DNA of 64,000 nucleotides from a virus (Duplodnaviria > Caudoviricetes). Position numbers and translations under genes: made by a program. Numbering within the stretch: position 1 is the first letter of the stretch; the number at the start of each line of letters is the position of its first letter. Of this stretch, positions 1-15,395 are shown one piece after another. The stretch lies in the IMG/VR virus record IMGVR_UViG_3300035208_003134, positions 1-64,000 of that record, one strand, 5' to 3'. The notes below the pieces were generated by a model. It was not told the origin of the DNA. It ran no database searches and saw only the letters and a program-made list of their open reading frames with translations.

Positions 1-145
1 GCGACAACATTGAATGGATGGACAAATATAAAAAAGAGCCAATGAAGTCAGAGATTGAGACTAATAAAATTGTCAATAGCAAGTACATTTATGGCACTTA
101 CCTTAAATACCCAAGCTTGACTGTTATGATGAGGAGAGGGTAGAG

Positions 146-469
146 ATGTTTAATGCTGAAGAGTGCTTAAATTTTAGGAAATTGTGTCAAGAGATTATCT
201 TCAGTCCAAGAATGATGGAGCGGCAGGAGCACAAGCGCGAGGGTAAGTACCTTTGGTGTGAGGATTGGGAGATTATTGAACTCATAAAGTACTTTTTTAA
301 TGGGAAGGACACCTATAATTTAGACCCGTTACCAAATAGGCTGAAGAACAACCCCTTATTTCCAGGCAGAGAGACAATAATAGCAAAAGGCGATGAGATG
401 ATTAAAGCCTTTGGAACGGCAGATAAGATTATAGACCAACTAAGGAGAAGAAGAAATGCCACCGCATAA
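146..469 (+). CDS. hypothetical protein
   Basis: 107-aa ORF with GGAG-type RBS; overlaps the next gene in an operon-like way. Confidence 0.55.
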   Translation: MFNAEECLNFRKLCQEIIFSPRMMERQEHKREGKYLWCEDWEIIELIKYFFNGKDTYNLDPLPNRLKNNPLFPGRETIIAKGDEMIKAFGTADKIIDQLRRRRNATA

Positions 470-1097
470 AGGAAGCCAAGAGACTTACGATTACATAGCA
501 AAGTGGGTTAGTCCGGAATTTTTTCATTCGGTTAATGACCGGTGGGATAGGATGGGGATGTTAGGCGCGTTTGGAGATTACGTATTATCCTGTACGCAGG
601 GTGACATAGTTGAGATAGGCTGTGGCGAAAGTTCAATTTACCTTTCGCATTTAGCAAAGAAATACAGCCGGAGAATTTACCACTGCGATATCGCGCCGGA
701 CAAGATACTGAACCCTCTGACAGTTGACGGCTATATGAACAAAGACCGTGGCATTTTTCATATGGGCTCGTCAGACAAGATGTTTGCAGAGTTTCCGCTA
801 AAAGGCATAGCTTTGGGCTTTATTGACGGCGACCACAATTATGCACAAGCAAAGAAGGATTTTGACAACCTAATGGCGGTCTTGGTTGACAACGGGTATG
901 TCCTTCTGCACGACACCTATCCGCCGAATGAGGAATACATAGACGAGAACCATTGCGGAGATGTTTATAAGCTTAGGCAGGAAATAGAGAAGGACAGCCG
1001 GTACGACTGCATAACCTTAACCCGTGGCACGGCTATGGGCGTAGGTTTGACCATAGTAAGGAAAAAGCCAAAGGAGTTAAAACCTTATAATGAGTAA
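456..1097 (+). CDS. class I SAM-dependent methyltransferase (Methyltransf_24/TylF-like)
   Basis: IVEIGCGESS SAM-binding motif, FIDGDHNY, LLHD motifs. Confidence 0.85.
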   Translation: MPPHKGSQETYDYIAKWVSPEFFHSVNDRWDRMGMLGAFGDYVLSCTQGDIVEIGCGESSIYLSHLAKKYSRRIYHCDIAPDKILNPLTVDGYMNKDRGIFHMGSSDKMFAEFPLKGIALGFIDGDHNYAQAKKDFDNLMAVLVDNGYVLLHDTYPPNEEYIDENHCGDVYKLRQEIEKDSRYDCITLTRGTAMGVGLTIVRKKPKELKPYNE

Positions 1098-2136
1098 AGA
1101 AAAGCTGTTAAATAAGTGGGCAGGTCTTGAAAAGTGGCACGAGAACTACGGCGACGGTATGGAGTACCGTGGCAAGGACGGCGCAAGTTGGTATGATTTA
1201 TCTATGAATGTAAATGCCATCCCGTGCGACGCCGACACCGCAGTCATAGTTACTGCGTGGTTTGGTCAACTCAAGTGGCTCAAGGCCGCATTAACGAGCT
1301 ACCGGAAGAGTGGGGCATTTGTTATATTAGCGTATGACAACCCATTCTATCCTTGGATACCACCGACCTATCAAGACATCTTGAGGTGCTTGCCAAATAT
1401 GGAGCACTTTGTACTTGCCAACTCTTTCGTGATGAAGCACATCACGGCTGATGCTAATAAACGCAACGGTTGGTTTTGGAATGTCCGGTACGCGCAGGGC
1501 ATAATTAAGGCTTTTCCGAACATTAAATATGTGTACCACACAAATGGCGACTGCGTGTGGGATAAGCCCGAAGGTTTAAAGGACTTAATCGCCTGCCTTG
1601 GCGACCACGATGTTATGGCAGGGCAGACCTCCGGTGATGTGCTACATACTGCGGATGTAATTTGGAAAAAAGAGGCTTTTAACAAAGTCGTGGATTATAT
1701 GTATGACATAATGCGAACTCCAATTATTGGCTCGCACAGTCCGGAAGTTATGCTTAAGGAAGCAGTCGGGGCTTGTAACCTTCTCGTCTTGACAGCGCCC
1801 AAGCAGCCTCTTGACCCTAACGACGGCTCGGTTGATATGTACGCGCGCTACGGGCAGGACTCAACTTTTAAGGACTTAGTTGGGTTTAGGAATGCGTTTG
1901 CCGAATATGAGACTATGGGTAATGAAGGCAAGGAAATGATGTTCTTGAAGCCCTATGTTGATAATTATTTGGATTGCATTTATTGGGGCGGTGAGGAGAG
2001 GGAAACGATTTGTAAGTATTGGGAAACAGGTGACCGGCGTTACCTTTATAAATTCTGGGACCAATGGGAAGACAGCGATTATAACCGGCTTTATTACCCG
2101 TTAGAATTTTACGGCAAAGAGCCAATTTTAGACTAA
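1090..2136 (+). CDS. putative GT-A-fold glycosyltransferase-like protein
   Basis: AVIVTAW..LKAALTSY..VILAYDN N-terminal Rossmann-like pattern; YVYHTNGDC at the DxD-equivalent position; paralogous to the next ORF. Confidence 0.5.
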   Translation: MSKEKLLNKWAGLEKWHENYGDGMEYRGKDGASWYDLSMNVNAIPCDADTAVIVTAWFGQLKWLKAALTSYRKSGAFVILAYDNPFYPWIPPTYQDILRCLPNMEHFVLANSFVMKHITADANKRNGWFWNVRYAQGIIKAFPNIKYVYHTNGDCVWDKPEGLKDLIACLGDHDVMAGQTSGDVLHTADVIWKKEAFNKVVDYMYDIMRTPIIGSHSPEVMLKEAVGACNLLVLTAPKQPLDPNDGSVDMYARYGQDSTFKDLVGFRNAFAEYETMGNEGKEMMFLKPYVDNYLDCIYWGGEERETICKYWETGDRRYLYKFWDQWEDSDYNRLYYPLEFYGKEPILD

Positions 2137-2153: not shown

Positions 2154-3098
2154 ATGGGAGTTACAAGGGAAGATTTAATCCGTAACGGTAGGTACTTAGA
2201 AATGAGCGATGCTGAATGGGAAATTGAGCTTGCAGCTCGCAAAAATGTCATTGAGTGCTATATGAAAAATGACGAGTGGGGTGTAAAGATAAAGAAAAAC
2301 GTCTTAATACTCTTGATTTCACATAACTCCGGCAGGTGTTATTTGACCGGCTCGGTGAATAGCCATAAGCAACTTGGTTATTGGTTGGCAGTCTGCTATG
2401 ATAACTTTATCAACCCAGTTGAGGACGCAGTAGATTACAATGCCCAAATGCCACCTAAAGATGTAATGGATAAGATAGACACTTTTATGATGGGGCACTA
2501 CCAAACTTGGGGCGGAGTAAGTTACCCGTTTATGTGGAGCTTGAAGATTGCGTCCGGATTTGCCCAAAACTTTGAGTACGTGTACTGTGTAAATGGCGAC
2601 TGTATTATTGAAAAGCCGGAAGGCTTTCCAGAAATGCTTAAGACCCTCGGAGACGCAGACATTATGAGCTCCGGACCAGCTCTGGAGCGCGAGATTGGTA
2701 CAGCAGGCTTACTTATGAAATCTTCTGCTTTTGCTAAAATAGCCAAGCATATGATTGACCACGTAGTTCCTTTTGAGGAATATGAGAAGTCAACTCAAGA
2801 CTTTGGCAATACAGAAGGGCGACTTGCAGTGGCAGTAAGGGATTTGGGCTTAAAGCAAGTTATAGTTGAGCCACCGTACAATGAGCAATTTCATAAGCCA
2901 GGAATTGGCTTTTGGGCTAAGACTATCGGATTTCGGCATATTCACGGCGAGCATAACTACGCCTACAGGTACAAAGGAATTCCACCCGAACCCAAATACC
3001 TTGACCCAAGGTTTATGGGTGACGAGTTTAATCAAATCAAAGCCTATTGGGAGACCAAGGATATGAAAATCCTTGAAAATTGGTGGGCTAAGGATTAA
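2154..3098 (+). CDS. putative GT-A-fold glycosyltransferase-like protein (paralog of 1090..2136)
   Basis: Shares YDN, YVYxxNGDCxx(D/E)KPEG, LGDxDxM, (L/I)(V/I)GFR and YWET motifs with the upstream ORF. Confidence 0.5.
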   Translation: MGVTREDLIRNGRYLEMSDAEWEIELAARKNVIECYMKNDEWGVKIKKNVLILLISHNSGRCYLTGSVNSHKQLGYWLAVCYDNFINPVEDAVDYNAQMPPKDVMDKIDTFMMGHYQTWGGVSYPFMWSLKIASGFAQNFEYVYCVNGDCIIEKPEGFPEMLKTLGDADIMSSGPALEREIGTAGLLMKSSAFAKIAKHMIDHVVPFEEYEKSTQDFGNTEGRLAVAVRDLGLKQVIVEPPYNEQFHKPGIGFWAKTIGFRHIHGEHNYAYRYKGIPPEPKYLDPRFMGDEFNQIKAYWETKDMKILENWWAKD

Positions 3099-3111
3099 TG
3101 AGGAGATACCT

Positions 3112-3894
3112 ATGAACTATTATTGTAGTTGGGATGATGTTAAGGCTTGCCTCTTAGGTTTGGATGTTGCTGACATTCCAACCACCCTGCAAACCAGAAT
3201 AGAACAGACTTATATTCCGGCTCTCAAGAACGAAATAGATACTTATGTCCTGCAGAACCTTGATTTGACTACGATTACGGAATTCTATGACGGCTCCGGG
3301 ACCGACAAAATTATCTTAAAGAAGCGTCCGGTCAATCAGCTAACCAACTGCATCTTGCGCGTTATTCCATCCATTTCGTGGTACACCTTCGCGCGTTGGC
3401 GCCATATCAATGTTGTAGATAGTCAGGGAATTACGGTTGCTGTCCAAGGTGGTCCAGAGCCATACACTGGAAAAACTCCGCCTTATAGTCCAGGAGACTA
3501 CGTTTGGGAAACAGACATCACCAAAGCAGACCTCTTTGTGGATTGTGTAAACGGGTTTTTGACCATTCCACCGAGGATACTTTATTTGGAGATGCAGGCT
3601 ATTCCTTTTTGGAATTATACTTGGCTTAAGGGAAATGCCAACATTGAAGTTACTTACACCTATGGCTATGCAAGCGATAATTTCCCATTGGATTTAAGAA
3701 TGGCAGCTGCGAAGCTTGTGGCCGCTCAACTCTTATTGATAAAGGGGATTGGGATGAGCGCTGGGGCAAATTCTATAACCATAGATGGGGTGGCTCGTAA
3801 CTTTGGTGGTACGCCTTATGCAGCTCTGATTAAAGATTTCAGAGACCAAGCATACCAGACCTTAGACCACTTCAGGAGACTTGGAGTAGGGTAA
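3112..3894 (+). CDS. head-tail connector/adaptor protein
   Basis: Y(C)SxxDVK start, EFYDGSG, NIEVTYTYGY..PxDLRMA pattern typical of gp15/gp6-like adaptors; start moved to the ATG after GAGGAG. Confidence 0.7.
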   Translation: MNYYCSWDDVKACLLGLDVADIPTTLQTRIEQTYIPALKNEIDTYVLQNLDLTTITEFYDGSGTDKIILKKRPVNQLTNCILRVIPSISWYTFARWRHINVVDSQGITVAVQGGPEPYTGKTPPYSPGDYVWETDITKADLFVDCVNGFLTIPPRILYLEMQAIPFWNYTWLKGNANIEVTYTYGYASDNFPLDLRMAAAKLVAAQLLLIKGIGMSAGANSITIDGVARNFGGTPYAALIKDFRDQAYQTLDHFRRLGVG

Positions 3895-4906: not shown

Positions 4907-5457
4907 TGCCAGCGCCTTATGTTTATACGGGCGGAGACAAGAACTTCAGCCTGACTATAACTATACAAGACCCCAAAAAGTGGGATATGTGGGAAAATGT
5001 AAGCTCCATTTTTATGGACAACTTCAAGGTCTTGTTCAAGTATGCGGTATTTGATGCAAACAAATATCTGATAAGGGCAACCCCAATGTTGAGCGGCCGG
5101 TTGCGTGGGGGTTGGACAAAGTTCTTAGACAAGTATAATATTGATTACTCGGCGGCGTTTTTGGATACGACCTTAGTTACGGCGCACAACCAGACGCCAA
5201 GCCAAGAAGCAATATCAGAAGGGCAGTCTCAGAGCTCTTTTATTGATACAGATTTTATGGTTTCACTAATCAACGCCGTGGCTTACGCAGATTACGTTGA
5301 GAGTGGGACTTCAAGGATGGAAGGACAGCATTTCACCTTGAGGTCTATGTACAAGGGTGAGTTGATTATTAAGAAGTACATAGAAGAGTGGGTTAAGGAA
5401 TGTTCTGAACGGGGCGAAATCGTTGAGCCCAAGCAAATGGAGGAGGTTCAAGCATAA
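4906..5457 (+). CDS. HK97 gp10-like tail completion/neck protein
   Basis: TPMLSGRLRGGW and NAVAYADYVESGTSRM motifs. Confidence 0.75.
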   Translation: MPAPYVYTGGDKNFSLTITIQDPKKWDMWENVSSIFMDNFKVLFKYAVFDANKYLIRATPMLSGRLRGGWTKFLDKYNIDYSAAFLDTTLVTAHNQTPSQEAISEGQSQSSFIDTDFMVSLINAVAYADYVESGTSRMEGQHFTLRSMYKGELIIKKYIEEWVKECSERGEIVEPKQMEEVQA

Positions 5458-6059
5458 TGGCACTTCCTGCTGATTTTAAGTGGAACTCCGGAAAAGGCGC
5501 GCTGATGGGAAGTCTTGCAGAGTACCTGCAGACCAACATTCCGGACGAAAATTTTGAATTTGACTGCCCCATACTTCCCCAGAAACTTCCTGGGTATGGC
5601 GTTACGGAGAAGGGCTTATATAACTTAGGGACTTATGCGTTTGACCAGTTCTTGGGGTACAAGGATGGTCAACCTTTATACGGAAGAAAAGACCAAACCT
5701 TAGTTGAGATATCGGCTTGGGATGACGAGACACAACATCCAGGTGCGGTAGGCAAAATAAGGCAGATGAGAGATAAGATAGTGTATCTCTTACTTAATGC
5801 AGGCAGAGTGAATGATGACGGCGTGACGGTTCAGCCGCCCATCCTTCTATACGATTACTCTGTTACTCCTAAGAAAGAAATAGGATATATAGAGTTAGAC
5901 CCTGCCGATAATTCTATAAATGAAAAGCAGGTGATAGACCCAATCAACTCTAACATCAAGTCTTACAAGCTCTTGATTAGGTTGTATTGGTACGAGTACA
6001 TTGGGTACTCATCAAGCAGTTCGTGTAGGAGTAGTTCAAGCAGTAGCAGTTCAACATAA
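5457..6059 (+). CDS. putative tail terminator protein with C-terminal Ser tag
   Basis: Sits between the neck and tube genes; ends YSSSSSCRSSSSSSSST. Confidence 0.55.
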   Translation: MALPADFKWNSGKGALMGSLAEYLQTNIPDENFEFDCPILPQKLPGYGVTEKGLYNLGTYAFDQFLGYKDGQPLYGRKDQTLVEISAWDDETQHPGAVGKIRQMRDKIVYLLLNAGRVNDDGVTVQPPILLYDYSVTPKKEIGYIELDPADNSINEKQVIDPINSNIKSYKLLIRLYWYEYIGYSSSSSCRSSSSSSSST

Positions 6060-6085
6060 ACTAAGACAAAATAGGAGGTGAAAAA

Positions 6086-6922
6086 GTGGAAACAATTCAA
6101 GGTCTAAGGACTAAAGTAGTATTAGTTAGCTTTAGTCACGGTTCAGTAAGGGTCGGATTACAGCAGACGCTGAACATCACCCCCAGATTTACTGAAAGGA
6201 CAATTTCCGAGTTTGACAACTTGGAACCGGCGCTCATAGTCACAACCTATGAAGCCACGGATGTCACCTTTGAGTATCTGGATAGTGACAGTAAGCTCGT
6301 GGATGCGGCCGTGAACGACCAAGACCCTGGAGCGGATGTAGTTGTGGATGACCCGTCAGCCTATCAGCCGCTGACATTGTTTGCGAATAGTAAGTCTCTT
6401 ACCTCTGGTAAGATATTCGCTTCAGTGTTGGTTAGCGGATGTATGGTTAAAGGTGCACCACAGACCGAGCCAGTGAAGGAAGAGTTGAGGGTTACAAGAG
6501 ACCTTACGGGGTTGAATGTCCTGAAGCTCAAGGGCGCAGGGATTTACTATCAGAGGATGTTACCGGAGACTCCGGACGCTGATACTTTCCTGCAGACAGT
6601 ACCGCCGAATGCATACGCTGATTTGAATTTTTCAGCCGGTGCAGACCACTATGTGAACAATGTCAAGGACGCATTGTCGGTGAACGGCTCATATGCCCTG
6701 TTAGTCCTGAAGAACGGAGTAGCTGTAACGACTGGATATGTAATGAACAAGTATTACTTCCACGTTACAGACCCACTCGTATCTACTGATGTGTGGGAAG
6801 TTTTCTACGCATTTGACGATACGGTGACTCCTCCGAGTACATCGTCAAGCTCGTCTTGCAGAAGCTCTTCAAGCTCAAGCAAGAGTAGCTCAAGTTCGTC
6901 AAGCTCCTCGCATTCAGCGTAA
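6086..6922 (+). CDS. major tail tube protein with Ser-rich C-terminus
   Basis: Strong AGGAGGTG RBS, position before chaperone and tape measure, followed by a GC hairpin; ends in about 28 aa of Ser-rich sequence. Confidence 0.65.
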   Translation: METIQGLRTKVVLVSFSHGSVRVGLQQTLNITPRFTERTISEFDNLEPALIVTTYEATDVTFEYLDSDSKLVDAAVNDQDPGADVVVDDPSAYQPLTLFANSKSLTSGKIFASVLVSGCMVKGAPQTEPVKEELRVTRDLTGLNVLKLKGAGIYYQRMLPETPDADTFLQTVPPNAYADLNFSAGADHYVNNVKDALSVNGSYALLVLKNGVAVTTGYVMNKYYFHVTDPLVSTDVWEVFYAFDDTVTPPSTSSSSSCRSSSSSSKSSSSSSSSSHSA

Positions 6923-6951
6923 GCTGACAGTTAGCGAGTAGTATAAAGTGG

Positions 6952-6978
6952 GGCAGGGCGACGCAATGTCGCCCTGCC
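6952..6978 (+). terminator. hairpin (terminator/attenuator) after the tail tube gene
   Basis: GGCAGGGCGAC-gcaat-GTCGCCCTGCC perfect 11-bp stem; only a short U tract, so probably leaky. Confidence 0.7.
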
Positions 6979-6999
6979 TTAATAAAAGGAGAGAAGAAA

Positions 7000-7521
7000 A
7001 TGGCTGAAGAGAAGGCAACACAGGCAATGAGCAAGTTGAAAAAGGACAGGGTTGACATAGATATTAACCCTAAAAGGTTTCTTCTGGAATTTACCCAGGG
7101 GGAGCTTAAGAGGTTAGAGGAACAGCCGGTAGAGGGTTTGTCGGATTTAGACAAGGAAGCCCTTGAAGCTGTAAAGAAGTCTCATAGGGCAAACGTGGAG
7201 GAGTATTCCAAGGCGCAACTTAAGGCTATTATGGTCCCACTGAAGTACCGCGACTTGCAGACTGTTAAAAATGGAATTTTTGAGGCTATACAGGCTGCAA
7301 AGAAATACAACTGGGATGATGATGTCAAAATTAGGGCTATGATGAGAGAGGAGCACACCCTAACGGTGTACCTTTCCCTAAGGAAAAAAGGGGACATCAG
7401 TAAGCTCTATTATGACAACCTTGAGGATATTTGCGCGGAGAATGATGCTGCGATAGATGAGTTGTACCAAACTTATTTGGACAACTTTGTTCTTACGGAG
7501 GCTGAAAGAAAAAACTCTTAG
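7000..7521 (+). CDS. tail assembly chaperone (gpG-like)
   Basis: Between tube and tape measure genes; ends in the slippery sequence A-AAA-AAC. Confidence 0.75.
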   Translation: MAEEKATQAMSKLKKDRVDIDINPKRFLLEFTQGELKRLEEQPVEGLSDLDKEALEAVKKSHRANVEEYSKAQLKAIMVPLKYRDLQTVKNGIFEAIQAAKKYNWDDDVKIRAMMREEHTLTVYLSLRKKGDISKLYYDNLEDICAENDAAIDELYQTYLDNFVLTEAERKNS

Positions 7522-7736
7522 AGAGCAATTTACTTAAAAGCCATCAAGTTATTGCTCTCCATTTCGGCTACAAGTTATTTGAAGCCGACTCAATAGATGG
7601 CTTGACTGTTGAGCAGTATAATATTTCAATTGAGCTCTTCAATAGGCAAGCTGAAGAAGCTGAGAAGGGTAAAAAAGTGGGCAAGAATACTATGAGCATA
7701 GTGTCTGTTGATGAACCTGAAACCGGAGATAATTAA
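7509..7736 (+). CDS. -1 frameshift extension of the tail chaperone (gpGT-like)
   Basis: Slippery A AAA AAC at 7509-7515; the -1 frame is open for 73 codons to TAA 7734-7736, which overlaps the tape measure ATG; hairpin at 7521-7559. Confidence 0.8.
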   Translation, partial: KKLLESNLLKSHQVIALHFGYKLFEADSIDGLTVEQYNISIELFNRQAEEAEKGKKVGKNTMSIVSVDEPETGDN

Positions 7737-9820
7737 TGGCTTCTAACTTAATTATTACATTTCAGACCAAAGCTGATGCCACTGGTGCAAATCAGATAGG
7801 CAAGGGTATGGAAGATATGAAGAGGCGAATGCAGGAGACTGCATCCGCAACTGATGATGTAGCTAAGTCATTCTCCACCCTAAAGAATATTATCGTTGGC
7901 ACTGTACTTGCCCTGCCCTTGACCGGTTTTATAAAGGAAGCTATTGCAAGTGAGGAAGTTACTGCAAGGTTTGGCATACAGCTCAAGACCTTGGGTCAAA
8001 ATATAAATACACTTGACATAGAAGGCATTACTCAAAGGCTACACCAATTTGGTATCACCCAAACTGAAGTGATTGAAGCCTTTAGCCGTGGTCTTCCCTA
8101 CTTTAAGAACACCGAGAATGAGCTTAAGTACTTAAATACCGCAATCGGTATGACGAGGTACTCCGGAGTTGAGCTTTCCACTGCTTTCCAACAGCTTGGT
8201 TATATAATGCAGTATGGCAACGCTCGCGTAGCCAGACAATACGGCGTTGCTATGCACTCGGAAATAAGAGAGCCTACACAGAGGGCTGCAGCAGTTATGG
8301 CTGATTTGCAGAAGGCTATGGAGCCTTTGGCTACTACGACCGGCACGACTGCTGAGAGCTTGAAGGCTATGGCTGCAATTATTAAAGATACTGGGGAGAA
8401 AATCGGAGCCGAATTCTTAAGACCTATTGCGGCTATGGCAGAAGCTTTTAATAAACTATCACCGGAAATGCAGACTATGATTATCAGAACTGTCTTATTC
8501 ACCACTGCCGTTGGCGGCTTGGCTTTAGCTTTCAGTGCTTTGGGTAAGGCTATGGCAGGAAGCGCTATACTTAGTTCGTTGTCGGGCTTGCAGGGCATAT
8601 TCGCTCTCCCCTTTGTTTCTAATATAGGAAAACTACAAATGGCTATACAGGGCTTAGCCGGAGCTTTTGGCGGCCTAATAATTGGTGGTGCAACCATCGG
8701 GGCTATACTTGCTATACAGGATGCCGCTGCTAAGGTCAAGGACTCCTTTGCAAATGCAGAAAAGGCTGAGGCCGCATACTTCAGTACTGTTATGAATGCT
8801 ATGCACGCCAGAGCCTCTGACGCAACTACGGCTATTGGTAATGAGGAAAAATTTACTGATAAAGTTAAAGAGACTGAAAAGGTTTATAAGAACCTTTTGA
8901 CTCAACAGGCTTTATTCCGTATGCACGGGGAAGCCGGTAAGGCTGGAGAAGAGCAGGCGGCCAAGCAGGCTGCTCAAGTGAAGGCTCTCCTTGATAGCCA
9001 ACAGAAAGAAGCTGCTGAGATGGCTAAACATAACATCTCAACCTTGGAAGATTATAAGAAATTTCAATATAAGATGGCTGAATTGAGAGTCCAATCTATC
9101 AAGGGCAGTAGTGAAAGAGAGCTTGCTGAGTTCAGGTTGAAGTGGCAAAAAGAGCGCGACGAAATGCTCAAGGCTTATGGCGACCAAATGGATGTCCGGC
9201 TTGCTCTTACTAAAGCTGAGGCTGCGCAAGAAATTGATGTCCGGAAAAAGCAGCTTGATAAAGAGCTTGAGTATGCCTCAATGACTAATGAGGAGCGCAA
9301 GAAATACGACCAAGATTATCAAAACGCCAAAAGCCAGTTGGCAGGTATGAGCTTTGAGGGCTTTAAGACTGCTGACGATAGCTTGAAAGAGTTAGTCAAG
9401 ACTTCTGGAGGCGCGAAAGCCTTAGACGAGCAGAAGACCGCTTGGGCTGAACAACAAGTTCAGATAGCCCAAACCAAAAAAGAATTAGAATTGTACGGTG
9501 CTACTGCGGCTGACATAGCTCAACTCTACCAAAAGAATAAAGATAAAGGTATAGAGTGGTTGAAGAGGGAAGAGCAGGCTATTAAGGACAAAAAGCGCGC
9601 AGAACTTGAGGAAGCCGAGACTGGGGTCAAGTCTTTGAAGTCTTTTACTTCTGAGGAGAAGACCATAAGTGCTAAAGCCGAAATGAACATAAACACCACG
9701 GTTAATATAACCCCCAATTTGAGTGAGATAGGTAAAGCGGCCGGAGATGCAGTTGCAGCTGCCGTAAATAATAACACCAAACAGATTGAGGACGCCGTAA
9801 AACAGAGGTTACAGGGATGA
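7736..9820 (+). CDS. tape measure protein
   Basis: 694 aa, Ala/Gly-rich helical sequence with a hydrophobic centre and coiled-coil C-terminus; follows the chaperone. Confidence 0.85.
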   Translation: MASNLIITFQTKADATGANQIGKGMEDMKRRMQETASATDDVAKSFSTLKNIIVGTVLALPLTGFIKEAIASEEVTARFGIQLKTLGQNINTLDIEGITQRLHQFGITQTEVIEAFSRGLPYFKNTENELKYLNTAIGMTRYSGVELSTAFQQLGYIMQYGNARVARQYGVAMHSEIREPTQRAAAVMADLQKAMEPLATTTGTTAESLKAMAAIIKDTGEKIGAEFLRPIAAMAEAFNKLSPEMQTMIIRTVLFTTAVGGLALAFSALGKAMAGSAILSSLSGLQGIFALPFVSNIGKLQMAIQGLAGAFGGLIIGGATIGAILAIQDAAAKVKDSFANAEKAEAAYFSTVMNAMHARASDATTAIGNEEKFTDKVKETEKVYKNLLTQQALFRMHGEAGKAGEEQAAKQAAQVKALLDSQQKEAAEMAKHNISTLEDYKKFQYKMAELRVQSIKGSSERELAEFRLKWQKERDEMLKAYGDQMDVRLALTKAEAAQEIDVRKKQLDKELEYASMTNEERKKYDQDYQNAKSQLAGMSFEGFKTADDSLKELVKTSGGAKALDEQKTAWAEQQVQIAQTKKELELYGATAADIAQLYQKNKDKGIEWLKREEQAIKDKKRAELEEAETGVKSLKSFTSEEKTISAKAEMNINTTVNITPNLSEIGKAAGDAVAAAVNNNTKQIEDAVKQRLQG

Positions 9821-10803
9821 TAGCGAGCTTATATTGGGTCCAAGGCGAAGACGGAGACGGAGCGCAGTACACGTTCTATCCTAAGCCGAGCGTACAGAGG
9901 AATTTCCCAGGTCAGAGGTTAGCCCAGTTTGAGATACCTGGGGTTGACGGAGCTATCTTGCAGCAAATGGGTACTTCTGTCCGCAGGATACAACTTGCCG
10001 GAGTGATTTTTGTCCGGCCGCCAAATTATGACAACCTTATGCAAGCCAAGGTTGATTTTGAAAATGGAATAGGCAGGAATGTAGGACAGTTACACATTGA
10101 GTCCTTGACCAGTCAATCCAATAGGCATCATTTTTACTATAAGTGCATACTTGAAGGTGACATTCAATGGGCTGAACAGACCAACCCACAAATTTTAGAC
10201 TATAAGGTTACTTTCTTATGTGTTGACCCGATTGAATACGAGTATTATGACTCAAGTTCCAGCTCAAGCTCTTATTCGTCATCGTCAAGTTCGTGCCGGA
10301 GCTCTTCATCATCCAGTAGTAGCTGCCGGAGTAGTTCTTCGTCCTGCTCAAGTTGCTCAAGTTCGTCCTCTTGCAGGAGCAGTTCTTCCAGCTCTAAGAG
10401 CTCCAGCTCAAGCTCCAGAAGCTCAAGTTCTTCCAGCTCTTCAAGCCGGAGTAGCTCATTAAGCAGTAGTTGTTCAAGCAGTAGCTGTTCCTCTTGCAGG
10501 AGTAGCTCATCAAGTTCGTCTTGCAGGAGCAGTTCTTCCAGCTCTTCGTCAAGCTGTAGGAGCTCAAGCTCAAGTAGCTCGTGCCGGTCAAGTTCGTCAA
10601 GTAGTTGCCGGAGCTCCAGCTCTTCAAGCAGTTGTAGGAGTAGCTCGTCAAGTTGCCGGAGCTCAAGCTCTTCGTCAAGTAGTTCTCGTAGCTCAAGCTC
10701 TTCAAGCTCAAGCAGGAGTAGTAGTTCATCCAGCAGTTCAAGTATGAGTAGTAGTTCTTCAAGTAGCAGTAACAGTTCTTCAAGCTCCAGTGCCGGAGCA
10801 TAA
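9817..10803 (+). CDS. distal tail (Dit-like) protein with about 180-aa poly-Ser/Cys/Arg tail
   Basis: EIPGVDGA..MG...RRIQL and FLCVDP pattern directly after the tape measure gene; Ser tract about 10252-10791. Confidence 0.6.
   Translation: MIASLYWVQGEDGDGAQYTFYPKPSVQRNFPGQRLAQFEIPGVDGAILQQMGTSVRRIQLAGVIFVRPPNYDNLMQAKVDFENGIGRNVGQLHIESLTSQSNRHHFYYKCILEGDIQWAEQTNPQILDYKVTFLCVDPIEYEYYDSSSSSSSYSSSSSSCRSSSSSSSSCRSSSSSCSSCSSSSSCRSSSSSSKSSSSSSRSSSSSSSSSRSSSLSSSCSSSSCSSCRSSSSSSSCRSSSSSSSSSCRSSSSSSSCRSSSSSSCRSSSSSSSCRSSSSSCRSSSSSSSSSRSSSSSSSSRSSSSSSSSSMSSSSSSSSNSSSSSSAGA
10252..10791 (+). repeat. poly-serine coding tract (SSSSSCRSSSS units)
   Basis: Mixed TCN and AGY codons, so low complexity is at the protein level rather than a DNA microsatellite. 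Confidence 0.9.
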
Positions 10804-10817
10804 GGAGGGTTAGCAAT

Positions 10818-11780
10818 ATGGGTGCTATGGTTGATGCAGATTTAAAATTATACATAGGTGCGACCGAGTATGGTACTTTAGGTCAGCCGATTACTTTTGT
10901 TAATGCTCTTGCTGGGGAAATAACTGCACACCCTCTAAACCCTTTTTACTTATGGAATGATAAGGGTGGCGTTCTAAATAGCGTTCCGGCTAAGGAAATA
11001 AATATAGAAATTGACGATATGTGGGTGCAGGACGAAGCTTTAGGTACGGGCGACGGCACTCCTAACCAAACATTCAATACCTTCTTGACTCCGGTGCTTA
11101 TAGATACGGACTCGCTTGCGGATTTAGTCTTAAAAGTAGCCGGTACTGCGTGGTCTAAGGTGAGTACTTTTTCAGGTCAAGCTGCGAACGCGCAGGTCTT
11201 TACTATAACTGCCGCAGGCTTGGTTACTTTCGGCGACGGCGTAAACGGGAAGCCTCCAGCAGTTGGTGAAGCCATCACCCTTACTTATGCTCCGGATTTG
11301 GCGGCCTACGGTAAGAGTATCTATGAGGGTCTATGGTTTGAGGTCTTGTCTATTGGCGTGACTACCAATGTGGTTACTGTTACTGATGAGCTTCAAAATG
11401 CACAGGGCACGACCTTAGTTACTACATCTAATATTAGGCTCAATTCAGTGACTGGAGTATGGCTTGCAGGCGACCCAGACCATACAGGTACAAACTATTA
11501 CACCGGTGGTTCTTATGATGTTAGCACTGGTGAGATAACTCTCGGAGTTGCGTTGCCTTACAGCGATGCGGCCGTGATTATCACTTATTCATACATCTCT
11601 ATTGACGACTTAGAAAGTACATATACAGCAATAGGCAAAGATACGCCTCACGAGTTCACCAACCCAATTCCGCAGAACAATGCGAAGTTACTCTACTTTA
11701 GGTTAAATGTACCAGCAGGTGCGACTCCGAGTGGCGGAAGTAACTTTGCCTTCAGGTTAAAGTTTTCGTACCTTCAGTAA
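10818..11780 (+). CDS. tail/baseplate-associated structural protein
   Basis: GTGDGTPNQTF and VTFGDGVNGKPP motifs resembling baseplate-protein beta domains; synteny. Confidence 0.55.
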   Translation: MGAMVDADLKLYIGATEYGTLGQPITFVNALAGEITAHPLNPFYLWNDKGGVLNSVPAKEINIEIDDMWVQDEALGTGDGTPNQTFNTFLTPVLIDTDSLADLVLKVAGTAWSKVSTFSGQAANAQVFTITAAGLVTFGDGVNGKPPAVGEAITLTYAPDLAAYGKSIYEGLWFEVLSIGVTTNVVTVTDELQNAQGTTLVTTSNIRLNSVTGVWLAGDPDHTGTNYYTGGSYDVSTGEITLGVALPYSDAAVIITYSYISIDDLESTYTAIGKDTPHEFTNPIPQNNAKLLYFRLNVPAGATPSGGSNFAFRLKFSYLQ

Positions 11781-11795
11781 TTAGGATTGTAAAAT

Positions 11796-14700
11796 ATGGC
11801 AACCTTAACAAATAACGGTTTTGAAACTTGGACTACGCCTGGCTCTCCTGGCGGTTGGAGTGGTTCTTTGCCAGGGTGGACGCCCTACTCTGAAAACGGC
11901 GGTACTATGTCGCAACAAGCTGCCGTAGCCGGTATGGGCGGTAGTTATTGTGCCAACATAAGGTCAAGTAGTGCTGCACCGGTGAATTCAATAGGTGGTT
12001 GTGTATCCGACTCCTTTGAATTAGATGCAGACTACGTCTATTTCCTACATTCAGACCAATCTACCTCGGTAGCAGTTATGTTTTATCTGTTGGATGCGGA
12101 CGACGGGGATAGCGTCTTGATGTCACAGGCTATTACCCCGACTACTTCCCTTGTCCGTGAAGCTATTGATGTCTCTGCTTACATCGGTTACAATGTAAAG
12201 GTAAAAGTTACGCAACACACGGCTTCAGCCGGTTCGGGGTATGCTACATATGTTGATTTCTTCATAGTTAGCAGTCTAAACCATTTTCCTCCCTTATTAA
12301 ATGCCACTTATGTAAAAGCAACGAGCACTGGGGGTACGCATTACCCATACGGAGCTACCGATGGTGACAGACCGCTAACTGGGGCTTGGGATGGCAATGA
12401 TTGGTTGGGTAGTGCTGATAATAGCCAGCGTTTCCACATAGATTTAGGTGCGGCGATAGCAATAAATAAAATATATTATGAGAATGACCACAACAGTGGG
12501 GGTTCTACAACTTTCGGTGCAAAAGAATTCACTTTTTGGGGTTCAAATTCGGCGGCCGCTTTTGCAGATACGGTCTATGCGCACGACACTGATTGGACGC
12601 AGTTAACCACAGATGTTTCACAGTTTGACCAACACGTTGCTTCAGATGTGGCTGACCCTAAATATGTAGCCGTAACCAACTCTACAGCTTACCGCTATTA
12701 CGCCGTTAAGATTGCTAACAACTGGGGTGGCGTTAACCAGATGGGTATAAGGCGCATAGTCTTGCAATCAGAGACTACTTCATCCAGCTCTTCAAGTTGC
12801 AGTTCATCTTCTTCAAGTTGCAGGAGCAGTTCAAGTAGTTCCAGTAGGAGCTCATCCTCAAGCAGTTCAAGTAGCCGGAGTAGCAGTAGCTCAAGCTCCA
12901 AAAGTTCAAGTTCTTCCAGCTCTTCAAGCCGGAGCAGTTCGTCATCAAGCTGTAGGAGCTCAAGCTCTTCATCCAGCTCTTCTCGCTCTTCCTCATCTTC
13001 TTCAAGCAGTAGTAGGAGTTCAAGCTCTTCATCCCTAAGCTTATCTTTATCCAGTTCTTCAAGCCAAAGTAGTTCGTCAAGTTCATCGTCGGCTTCCAGC
13101 TCTTCGTCTTCATTCTTTAGCTCTTCGTCAAGCTCCAGCTTAAGTACTTCATCCAGTAGCTCAAGTAGCCGTAGTTCCTCAAGCTCAAGCAGTAGCTCTA
13201 AAAGTAGTTCCTCGTCTTCAAGTAGCTCTAAGAGCTCAAGTTCCTCATCCAGTCGTTCTTCCAGTAGCTTGTCTTCAAGTAGCTCTTCGTCTTCAAGTAG
13301 CCGGAGTTCTTCATCATCCAGTAGTAGTTCTCGCAGTTCTTCAAGTAGCTCTCGGTCTTTCTCGTCCAGTAGCACAAGTATGTCCAGCTCTTCAAGTTCT
13401 TTAACGCCATATGTTAAGGACTTGTACTGCAATGCCGGAATTACCAAGGAAGATACAGTAAATTTTTATGGAAATGCTGAGATTGTGCAGAAAGCCCCAA
13501 CCATACCAACCGGACTGTTTGCTACCGATATGCAGAAGGGAGATTTGATAAGGTTAAGGTGGACTGACGACGAGAACTACGGGTACAATGTGTACCGGAC
13601 AGCACCGGGACCAAGAGTTAAACTAAATACTTATGTTATAACTGACAATCAGTACTATGTTGGAAACCTTACTTTATTGCAGCCTTATAGCTTTGTTGTT
13701 GTAGGTGTCAACGGTATTGACACGGAGAGTGGGGATAGCAATGTAGCCTCGGCTACTCCCACAATCATAGACTTTCAAGGTCAGAGGTATACTACTTATT
13801 CATTTTCAGTGAAGGTTAATGGGGTAGCCAGAGCGCAGACAATACTTGAGTCGGTTGAGCTCGGTTATGGCACTTCGCCATCCACAAGCAAGTTCTATAT
13901 CCCTGAAGACCCAATTACTGCTACAAACCTTCCAGAAATTGACGACGAGGTTGAAATTATAGTTAATGGAAGCTCCATATTCAAGGGCATAATTAAGAAC
14001 AAAGAGGATGTTATAAACATTAGAGAGAAGAAGGTTGCCTATATAGCATATAGCAAAGTAATCCTGCAGACCTACAACCCGACGACTTGGGCACAGATAC
14101 TGGCCGCTCAAGCTGATTATTACGGCTTAAACATTACCGACCAGAACCAACTCCAAGCCGAAGAGACGATTGCCAACTACATCGGTAATTATAGGCTTTA
14201 TTACAATATGCAGACTGATACGACCGAACGCTACGAGCTTGGTACTGGATATTGGAATAGGGGCATTGTTTTGGGTACGAACATTGTTGAATATGACATC
14301 ACCGAGAACAACCTAAACAAGATAACCAAGGTTACGGTAAGGGGAGACCGGAAGAGGACGCGCGTAGCTTGGCAGCCTATGTCTATGTACCGGCGCTTAT
14401 TAAGTTCTGTAGATTATCCAGGAATTACCATAACCTATTATTACAACCAAATTGATGCCTTTAACATTGGAAACATCAAGGTTGAGGCTTTTCAATCTGT
14501 TGGGCAGCCGGAGTTTGAGTTTGACCCTGAAGTGTCTATGGTCCCATCTGATTACGGTATGACTGCTTGGGAAGACGGGACAGTTGGTCCTAAGCAGAAG
14601 GTTGTAAAGTTTACCAACCCAGCGGCAGACTGGCGAGGCGCTGGAGCTCGCGTTGATTATGTATATGAGAAAGTAGGCGATAAGGATGTTCCAATTTCCG

Positions 14701-15395
14701 CATTAATAGAGTTGACTTCAAGCCCAAAGGTTTACGCAGCACGGACTTCAACCGGTCACGCAGTAAGGTTGGGTAGGAACGAGTCAGAGAATGTGGATTT
14801 GGGCTGGTGTCGGTATGCATTGCCTAACCTTGTAGGGGGCTCTGGATACAGAGTAAATTATGAATATGAAGATGAAGACCCGACCGAGGTAAGCGTCGGT
14901 AGCGGTACTCCTGCAATTACGATTACTGACACTCAATATAAAATTTTTGTCAACAATGCACCGGAGACCGGAGAGCTTACTACCGACAATACTGCGGAGG
15001 TCCTGGCTGCTATGACGGCAAGGGCTAACGGTGAACTTGCCAAGTTCAACTTGCCCGAATTAAGCGGCCGGATAAGGATTGTCGGAGACGAGACCTTTGA
15101 CCTGAAGACTCAAGTCCAAGTAAAAGGTCAAATGCTTGATGTCATCCGTGTGGTGCATAACTTTGTTGGTGGCTTTACTACCGAGCTTGAACTTACTAAT
15201 GAGAAATTTAGGGTTAATGTACCGCCATATCAAAACGTCCAGAAGACCGTCTATGACAAGAACCTCTTGTTACAGGCGATTTCCAGAATAGACAGGTTAG
15301 CGTTAGACTTGCAGGCTCGTATAAACACTACATATGTTGAACAAGACAAGAACCAAATAACTCTAACGAGCCCATTTGCACTCTATGGAGACTAA
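11796..15395 (+). CDS. tail tip/hub protein: CBM-like + discoidin (F5/8-type) + poly-Ser linker + FN3 + hub domain
   Basis: LTNNGFETW start; FHIDLG..GAKEFTFWGSN..AYRYY discoidin pattern; about 200-aa Ser tract; PTGL..LRW..GYNVYR..YSFVVVGVN FN3; C-terminal hub-like region. Confidence 0.65.
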   Translation: MATLTNNGFETWTTPGSPGGWSGSLPGWTPYSENGGTMSQQAAVAGMGGSYCANIRSSSAAPVNSIGGCVSDSFELDADYVYFLHSDQSTSVAVMFYLLDADDGDSVLMSQAITPTTSLVREAIDVSAYIGYNVKVKVTQHTASAGSGYATYVDFFIVSSLNHFPPLLNATYVKATSTGGTHYPYGATDGDRPLTGAWDGNDWLGSADNSQRFHIDLGAAIAINKIYYENDHNSGGSTTFGAKEFTFWGSNSAAAFADTVYAHDTDWTQLTTDVSQFDQHVASDVADPKYVAVTNSTAYRYYAVKIANNWGGVNQMGIRRIVLQSETTSSSSSSCSSSSSSCRSSSSSSSRSSSSSSSSSRSSSSSSSKSSSSSSSSSRSSSSSSCRSSSSSSSSSRSSSSSSSSSRSSSSSSLSLSLSSSSSQSSSSSSSSASSSSSSFFSSSSSSSLSTSSSSSSSRSSSSSSSSSKSSSSSSSSSKSSSSSSSRSSSSLSSSSSSSSSSRSSSSSSSSSRSSSSSSRSFSSSSTSMSSSSSSLTPYVKDLYCNAGITKEDTVNFYGNAEIVQKAPTIPTGLFATDMQKGDLIRLRWTDDENYGYNVYRTAPGPRVKLNTYVITDNQYYVGNLTLLQPYSFVVVGVNGIDTESGDSNVASATPTIIDFQGQRYTTYSFSVKVNGVARAQTILESVELGYGTSPSTSKFYIPEDPITATNLPEIDDEVEIIVNGSSIFKGIIKNKEDVINIREKKVAYIAYSKVILQTYNPTTWAQILAAQADYYGLNITDQNQLQAEETIANYIGNYRLYYNMQTDTTERYELGTGYWNRGIVLGTNIVEYDITENNLNKITKVTVRGDRKRTRVAWQPMSMYRRLLSSVDYPGITITYYYNQIDAFNIGNIKVEAFQSVGQPEFEFDPEVSMVPSDYGMTAWEDGTVGPKQKVVKFTNPAADWRGAGARVDYVYEKVGDKDVPISALIELTSSPKVYAARTSTGHAVRLGRNESENVDLGWCRYALPNLVGGSGYRVNYEYEDEDPTEVSVGSGTPAITITDTQYKIFVNNAPETGELTTDNTAEVLAAMTARANGELAKFNLPELSGRIRIVGDETFDLKTQVQVKGQMLDVIRVVHNFVGGFTTELELTNEKFRVNVPPYQNVQKTVYDKNLLLQAISRIDRLALDLQARINTTYVEQDKNQITLTSPFALYGD
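12779..13400 (+). repeat. poly-serine coding tract
   Basis: About 200 codons that are nearly all Ser with interspersed R/K/C/L; mixed codons. Confidence 0.9.

Follow-up and report, generated by a model that had tools for sequence, protein, structure and literature searches.

Polyserine tracts on virion proteins of an uncultured tailed phage and a linked island of candidate glycosylation genes

The DNA analyzed in this work (hereafter, the window) is a stretch of 64,000 nucleotides corresponding to the first 64 kb of the single 97,890-bp contig of the IMG/VR record IMGVR_UViG_3300035208_003134, an uncultured phage of groundwater and landfill. It includes the tail module of a tailed phage, where four proteins carry tracts composed largely of serine, and part of an island of genes resembling sugar-modifying enzymes, which might act on such tracts. 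The two ends of the contig (window positions 1-159 and genome positions 97732-97890) overlap by 159 bp with two mismatches; thus, the genome is complete and circularly assembled, and the two mismatches indicate that a mixed population was assembled into a circle, and that the overlap is not an exact terminal repeat. Along the window, the head-tail adaptor gene (3073-3894; PHROG 442) is followed by three small genes, by an open reading frame (ORF) of 200 residues (5457-6059, plus strand), by one of 278 residues (6086-6922, plus strand), by a gene in the position of the tail chaperone, by a 694-residue ORF in the position of the tape measure, by an ORF of 328 residues (9817-10803, plus strand), by one of 320 residues and by a large ORF of 1199 residues (11796-15395, plus strand).

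Three of the four tail-module tracts are C-terminal. The 200-residue protein consists of a globular part (residues 1-182) and of the tag YSSSSSCRSSSSSSSST, with a tract spanning residues 185-199 (nucleotides 6009-6053; 13 of 15 residues are Ser); in the 278-residue protein the tract covers residues 253-275 (nucleotides 6842-6910; 20 Ser out of 23, or 28 residues in all with its flanks); and in the 328-residue protein it extends over residues 146-325 (nucleotides 10252-10791), 147 of these 180 residues being Ser, with 14 Cys, 14 Arg and 10 Cys-Arg (CR) pairs. The tract of the 1199-residue protein is internal (residues 329-535, nucleotides 12780-13400; 176 Ser out of 207). The share of serine in the four tracts is 82-87%, all of them are punctuated by Cys-Arg, and the motif S(4+)-C-R-S(4+) is found not more than eight residues from the tract start in all four ORFs. 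A preliminary description of this DNA had reported poly-Ser tracts on four tail proteins, and all of them are indeed present, in frame and where it had placed them.

A six-frame scan of the whole 97,890-bp genome retrieved long Ser tracts in five ORFs only, for a total of 10 segments and 868 residues. The fifth tract-bearing ORF (474 residues; genome positions 84821-86245) lies outside the window, and the protein that it encodes is about 80% serine over its whole length, with an N-terminus of 26-29 residues followed by 444 residues at 84% Ser. The same scan, performed on four complete relatives (about 378 kb together), returned a single marginal match of 12 residues, and the abundance of the tracts is far beyond chance. 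The 474-residue gene belongs to the head module, where its neighbors are a MuF-like gene on one side and the prohead protease/scaffold gene on the other. The preliminary description had also asked whether capsid and portal genes carry the tag: the portal, protease and SU10-type capsid genes do not bear it, and the head module harbors a stand-alone polyserine protein instead.

Low-complexity sequences of this kind might represent an artefact of assembly or annotation, or might result from reading the wrong strand, an idea that could lean on the long antisense ORFs overlapping the tracts (e.g., 12698-13447, minus strand) and on the contig joints that fall between tracts in some runs. However, the tracts are in frame between conserved domains and recur in orthologues at different lengths, and identical contigs from independent samples span them, with strain variants that are synonymous in the plus-strand frame, so that this explanation is effectively refuted. 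In three studies (groundwater 2022, landfill 2018 and landfill 2022), other samples yielded Logan contigs that run across the tracts, several of them without a single difference: records 6 and 7 of set X2 cover the entire tracts of the 328- and 1199-residue proteins with zero differences, and records 9, 10, 12 and 15 of set X3 cover all four tail tracts. All eight strain differences listed within the tracts are third-position synonymous changes (six in Ser codons, one in an Arg and one in a Lys codon). Small indels are limited to two of 3 nucleotides each, and these are the only length changes used as evidence, the length-changing contig joints inside tracts having short flanks. The antisense and other-frame ORFs (12698-13447 and 10394-10855 on the minus strand, 10220-10462 on the plus strand) were considered as genes and rejected, the variants being synonymous only in the Ser frame; ORFs of this kind read as Leu/Glu/Asp-rich or Ala/Gln/Val-rich sequences and are by-products of codon composition. 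The runs listed for the phage include no RNA data.

The choice of codons tells the same story. All six Ser codons are mixed in the tracts, and each of the two long tail tracts contains all six. The pair Cys-Arg occurs 29 times, whereas Arg-Cys never occurs, and Cys-Arg is spelled by six different hexamers, with both CGN and AGR codons. Moreover, adjacent identical Ser codons are about two-fold depleted in the three long tracts (11 vs. 23.9, 12 vs. 27.4 and 29 vs. 62.2 expected); out of 1000 codon shuffles, at most one gave a value as low, for each of the three. The sharing of DNA among the five tracts is within the expectation of codon shuffling except for two slightly long matches (20 and 29 nucleotides), and TRF detected only weak arrays of short period. 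On these grounds an origin at the DNA level, through recent copying, gene conversion or tandem repeats, was rejected. Since codons are mixed, TRF arrays are weak and there is hardly any excess of shared DNA, the likeness among the tags is at the protein level; the DNA has a diversified appearance, which would be expected under selection against homopolymeric DNA. The tracts are thus real coding sequence under protein-level selection, as the preliminary description had proposed from the mixing of codons; the order of Cys-Arg, the depletion of repeated Ser codons and the synonymous strain variants now support this view, and the lack of read support that it had considered fatal to its proposal does not occur. 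The genome contains no tRNA genes, so the phage does not supply a tRNA-Ser of its own.

A comparison with homologous proteins shows that the tracts are add-ons at domain ends. Single-sequence searches with the tube protein (the 278-residue protein, see below) gave no match in IMG/VR or INPHARED (tblastn); using a profile of the tube family, 13 IMG/VR relatives were found, and in all 13 no Ser tract exists within 10 kb on either side of the tube gene. Their orthologues align to residues 1-182 of 200, 1-247 of 278, 1-140/143 of 328 and 539-1199 of 1199 of the proteins analyzed here; that is, homology stops where the tracts start and, in the largest protein, resumes at residue 539. Among 40 tube homologues, 12 bear poly-Ser tails of about 10-30 residues (punctuated by R, K or C[RK]), whereas 28 stop at ...WEVFxLYxDV. 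In a quick tree of the family, ten tagged sequences fall in one clade (SH-aLRT 100) and an eleventh among the untagged ones, which suggests that the tag was gained once or twice, the well-supported branches being compatible with a single origin. The orthologues of the 328-residue protein that are tagged (P0041-P0043) have tails of 82, 96 and 105 residues, versus 183 here when counted to the C-terminus, all of them beginning right after the motif ...EYEYY (EYTFY in P0043). In this tail, presence and composition are conserved and length is variable.

Concerning the identity of the tagged proteins, the fold predicted for ORF 6086-6922 confirms it as the major tail tube protein. Its AlphaFold model (pLDDT 81.9 overall) comprises a tube/Hcp-fold core (residues 1 to about 160), an extra beta domain (about 160-247) and a poly-Ser(CR,K) tail (248-278) predicted as disordered (pLDDT about 35); the best Foldseek matches are the tail tube proteins of phage 812, PVC/AFP, HFTV1, monocin and lambda gpV, and the gene precedes those in the chaperone and tape-measure positions. 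As for ORF 9817-10803, sequence matches support its assignment to the distal tail protein Dit: in the family of its N-terminal domain (residues 1-145), 7 of 13 members match phrog_33 (best E 1.5e-6) and 6 match phrog_202, and the ORF directly follows the 694-residue tape-measure one. The 1199-residue protein is made up of a variable N-terminal module (residues 1-328), the 207-residue poly-Ser linker, an FN3 domain, with FN3 matches directly behind the tract, and a conserved core (539-1199). One orthologue matches a PHROG annotated as 'tail protein', the sole PHROG result, and the protein is a large conserved distal-tail protein and a putative hub. Its N-terminal module shows a weak match to DUF5000 (E 0.0015), below the cut-off; in one orthologue (L005:17013-19853), five tandem copies of this module (query residues 122-327), with no Ser linkers, lie ahead of the core. 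The label of tail terminator for ORF 5457-6059 is putative and derives from its position before the tube gene; a PDB profile search and PHROGs gave no match for this protein. Sequence and profile searches of the PDB also returned nothing useful for the tube protein, Dit, the N-terminal module of the putative hub and the parA gene introduced below. Thus, among the names given in the preliminary description, tube stands by fold and Dit by PHROG, terminator is a matter of position, and hub is best reduced to a large distal-tail protein.

The second component of the system is an island of about 10.7 kb located between the capsid gene (genome positions 88550-89536) and the head-tail adaptor gene. 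It encodes a DegT/PseC-type sugar aminotransferase dependent on pyridoxal phosphate, a fragment-sized protein resembling nucleoside diphosphate-sugar dehydrogenases, a dTDP-glucose-4,6-dehydratase-like enzyme and a 960-residue protein whose C-terminus matches Glycos_transf_1 and the glycosyltransferases (GTs) of the GT1/GT4 type BshA and PimB, below Pfam and curated cut-offs, and which also holds a methyltransferase-like segment. Four genes have methyltransferase domains, among which that of an S-adenosylmethionine methyltransferase (456-1097, plus strand; Methyltransf_24, E 1.5e-15), and two small genes have no assigned function. A 107-residue island gene without an assigned function (146-469, plus strand) is conserved alongside the cassette in other phages. 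The island ends with the genes here called parA (348 residues; 1090-2136, plus strand) and parB (314 residues; 2154-3098, plus strand), the last one; they are paralogues sharing about 23% identity, and parA accompanies parB in relatives.

Neither parA nor parB matched Pfam, PHROG or NCBIfam. The AlphaFold model of the parB product (pLDDT 92.6), built from 37 sequences, shows a GT-A fold: the top 50 Foldseek matches are all GT-A enzymes (probability 1.0, E about 1e-6, TM 0.40-0.45), including B3GNT2, alpha-1,3-GalT, glycogenin, GnT-I and COLGALT1. The residues N147-x-D149 are invariant across the 37 sequences (NGD in both parA and parB of this phage) and possibly take the place of the usual DxD motif; Y82 is also invariant, D83-N84 occur in at least 90% of the sequences, and the motifs YDN and NxD are common to parA and parB. 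With the predicted GT-A fold of parB and the GT4-like domain of the 960-residue protein, the phage would encode glycosyltransferase(s) of its own. Homologues of parB form at least 249 clusters at 90% identity, on several backbones.

The distribution of this island parallels that of the tracts. No parA or parB was found in six relatives with a CheckV completeness of 100%, where a positive control matched twice; four of the six were read whole, and they contain no cassette homologue and no Ser tract except the marginal one reported above. The closest complete relative, G001 (IMGVR_UViG_3300027902_000008), which is one of these four, lacks all five tracts, although its capsid protein, portal and adaptor are 89%, 73% and 76% identical to those of the phage studied here. 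Conversely, long poly-Ser tracts occur on each of the three IMG/VR contigs with parB, in proteins without detectable similarity to the structural proteins of this phage, among them a decoration-position protein right after a capsid-like gene, and proteins of 749-906 residues just downstream of parB, in a neighborhood with an SU10-adaptor-like gene and a PHROG 'virion structural protein'. On one of them, IMGVR_UViG_3300009838_000006 (41.5 kb; L019:36-2112, L016:11403-13928), the 334-residue protein encoded directly after the capsid-like gene has very regular S6-7-CR repeats over its last 158 residues, and the 841-residue protein after parB carries two more S6-7-CR tracts and is followed by the SU10-adaptor-like gene. 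Many parB carriers are contigs of about 40-44 kb.

A scan of metagenomes retrieved 72 parB loci, 17 of which have at least 40% identity and at least 3 kb of downstream sequence. Tracts are present in 14 of these 17, all on the parB strand and typically 1-1.8 kb downstream, and no structural gene common to this phage was found among these loci; comparison with the 13 relatives gives a Fisher P of about 5e-6, for loci that are not phylogenetically independent. In addition, one parB homologue (P0050) is located on a Logan contig of 96,805 bp, and the contigs of a tagged tube protein (P0002) and of a tagged Dit (P0042) are also 96,805 bp long. The survey for linked modifying enzymes that had been suggested beforehand has thus revealed an island of sugar-nucleotide, glycosyltransferase and methyltransferase genes that is present here, absent from tract-less relatives and placed beside polyserine proteins in most of the unrelated carriers.

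Across the carriers of the cassette the tracts are 78-90% Ser and almost free of Asp and Glu, and the residues interrupting them vary by lineage (C plus R, R alone, or L/I/V/T). Because the interrupting residues differ between lineages, Cys-Arg is a conserved local dialect and not a requirement. The periodic non-Ser residue probably breaks the homopolymer or sets a spacing, and it is unlikely to be chemically essential. In particular, the suggestion that Cys residues cross-link or bind metals finds no support: many cassette-bearing lineages have tracts without Cys, and Cys was accordingly rejected as an essential site of this kind. The same distribution bears on the wider possibility that the tracts undergo some other chemistry of Ser, Cys or Arg, such as phosphorylation, dehydration of Ser with formation of a lanthionine-like Cys thioether, a disulfide cross-link, or S- or Arg-linked glycosylation at Cys-Arg. 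The strict order of the pair and its conservation at the protein level through six spellings would fit such a chemistry, as would the recurrence of C followed by K/R in orthologous tails. Yet the tracts of many cassette-bearing lineages are free of Cys, some of them lacking even a basic residue, and no kinase or lanthipeptide-type enzyme was found among the island genes scanned, to which the scan was confined; we consider this explanation quite improbable.

It might also be proposed that the tracts are unmodified flexible spacers or entropic bristles, with the island serving a host envelope polysaccharide, DNA or another protein. Indeed, the tract of the 1199-residue protein joins a variable N-terminal module to FN3 and the conserved core in the manner of a polyserine linker (PMC2386152), disorder is predicted for the tails, and three parB loci are without a tract. 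On the other hand, four of the five tracts form the end of their protein, with no further module to connect, and tracts and island have the same distribution, both missing from close relatives and both found on unrelated backbones, which is hard to explain if they are functionally unconnected. Spacers of this kind are in our opinion an unlikely explanation, if one that deserves to be kept in mind.

The interpretation that we favor, with a probability of about 0.6, takes the polyserine tracts as disordered tags that serve as acceptors in a phage-encoded protein O-glycosylation system. According to this interpretation, the soluble enzymes of the island would build, in the infected cell, a methylated amino/deoxy-hexose glycan on Ser hydroxyls, the acceptors being the serines of tags that the terminator-position protein, the tube protein, Dit and the large distal tail protein carry on exposed ends or linkers. 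The tube alone would supply thousands of sites (about 150 copies, a rule-of-thumb figure from the 694-residue tape measure, with about 20 Ser each), and the outcome would be a mucin-like brush along the tail; the 474-residue polyserine protein of the head module would be a further substrate, the glycan brush probably being present on the head too. What we infer in this proposal is the modification of serine, the identity of the enzyme that begins the chain, the nature of the glycan and its benefit, which might consist in shielding, colloidal stability or adhesion. The common modification handle put forward in the preliminary description, for which O-glycosylation and phosphorylation were both considered, is supported by comparative genomics, and only the linked enzymes favor glycosylation over phosphorylation.

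Several points weigh against the glycosylation of the tags. The case concerns an uncultured phage and has been built from sequence alone, the linked enzymes could act on another substrate, and the tract of the 1199-residue protein behaves as a linker between domains, for which no sugar is required. The co-occurrence counts ignore shared ancestry, and at three parB loci (L060, L066 and L072, with a parB identity of 46%, 75% and 43% and 4.6-10 kb of downstream sequence) the parB strand shows no Ser or Ser/Thr tract; the tagged genes of these contigs are then located in another place, or the substrate of the three cassettes is a different one. Lastly, the tract-less G001 possesses glycosyltransferases, of the GT2 type, at the same locus, so these enzymes are not unique to tagged phages.

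The capsid-adaptor locus of G001 (L092-L096; L096:6229-12940, L092:260-2236, L096:1179-2810) harbors a GT2-methyltransferase fusion, a second GT2 and a GT9-like gene together with collagen-triple-helix proteins (Pfam Collagen, E 1e-135), and at the position of the 474-residue polyserine protein G001 encodes a 543-residue collagen-like protein (E 1e-53) whose N-terminus is loosely similar. The capsid-adaptor locus has the look of a site at which alternative 'fibre plus glycosylation' modules replace one another. A comparable arrangement is that of the Bacillus exosporium, where the collagen-like glycoprotein BclA forms a fibre, and where a repetitive fibre and a linked set of glycosyltransferases and methyltransferases decorate the surface of the particle. 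The collagen and GT2 module of G001, at the same two loci, is of this type; the phage analyzed here differs in having polyserine instead of Gly-X-Y repeats, and a different set of enzymes.

Other known systems share some features with the one described here. The virions of the mycobacteriophages Che8, Corndog and Myrna are reported to be glycosylated by phage glycosyltransferases (Freeman et al. 2023, Cell Host Microbe 31:1216, via PMC11256854, PMC12363180). The likeness consists in phage glycosyltransferases that act on the structural proteins of the phage itself and give the particle a coat of glycan, as those of the present phage are predicted to do. The differences include unrelated hosts and backbones, the presence here of long, nearly homopolymeric Ser tags as putative acceptors on at least five proteins, Dit and the distal tail protein among them, and an island that adds sugar-nucleotide tailoring, several methyltransferases and GT-A paralogues without a Pfam or NCBIfam family.

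In the serine-rich repeat protein (SRRP) adhesins of Gram-positive bacteria, Ser-rich repeats are O-glycosylated (PMC6973325); this dense glycosylation takes place in the cytoplasm through dedicated linked enzymes, and its product is a surface fibre (PMC6973325, PMC5207161). The SRRPs (Fap1, GspB and PsrP, with GtfA/GtfB; PMC6973325, PMC5207161) have long disordered Ser-rich regions and linked glycosyltransferases, including a GT4-type one; the phage has Ser-rich tracts linked to candidate glycosyltransferases, and its GT4-like domain scores below the curated cut-offs. Each SRRP, however, is a single adhesin of the cell wall, which consists of short degenerate repeats, is anchored through LPXTG and is exported by aSec, whereas here several virion proteins bear tracts of about 85% Ser with Cys-Arg. 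A C-terminal LPXTG anchor is missing from all five tract-bearing proteins (four end in the Ser tract, the fifth in the conserved tail core), and the system is not an SRRP, for it lacks the anchor and the tagged proteins are virion proteins. Polyserine linkers (PSL), in turn, are known from the modular carbohydrate-active enzymes of Saccharophagus degradans and Cellvibrio japonicus (PMC2386152; Howard et al. 2004 cited there). Here a mixed-codon poly-Ser joining folded modules is encountered in ORF 11796-15395 only; unlike PSL, four of the five tracts are C-terminal, their length reaches 180-444 residues, and a glycosylation island is linked to them. No description of polyserine tags on phage structural proteins was found in the literature searched.

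A remaining question concerns what these findings might mean for phages of this kind. Tags and the parA/parB island may represent a portable two-part system for coating virions, in which the cassette moves between unrelated backbones and the tags then arise on exposed termini or linkers (possibly twice in the tube family), with the capsid-adaptor locus swapping modules (polyserine with GT-A/GT4 versus collagen with GT2); this broader view is a tentative one, to which we assign somewhat less than even odds. If it is correct, an evolvable glycocalyx is a feature of many uncultured groundwater and sediment phages, and the tags would be a simple, transferable handle for the site-directed glycosylation of proteins. 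To our knowledge, experiments have demonstrated glycosylated phage particles for no more than a few mycobacteriophages, and the locus described here suggests a much more widespread, modular version of it. In this version the acceptor would be recognizable from sequence alone, and tagged and untagged orthologues that track one island of enzymes would offer a natural experiment. A minimal tag of the form (S6-7 C R)n, approximately, if recognized by soluble transferases, could serve as a handle for glyco-engineering.

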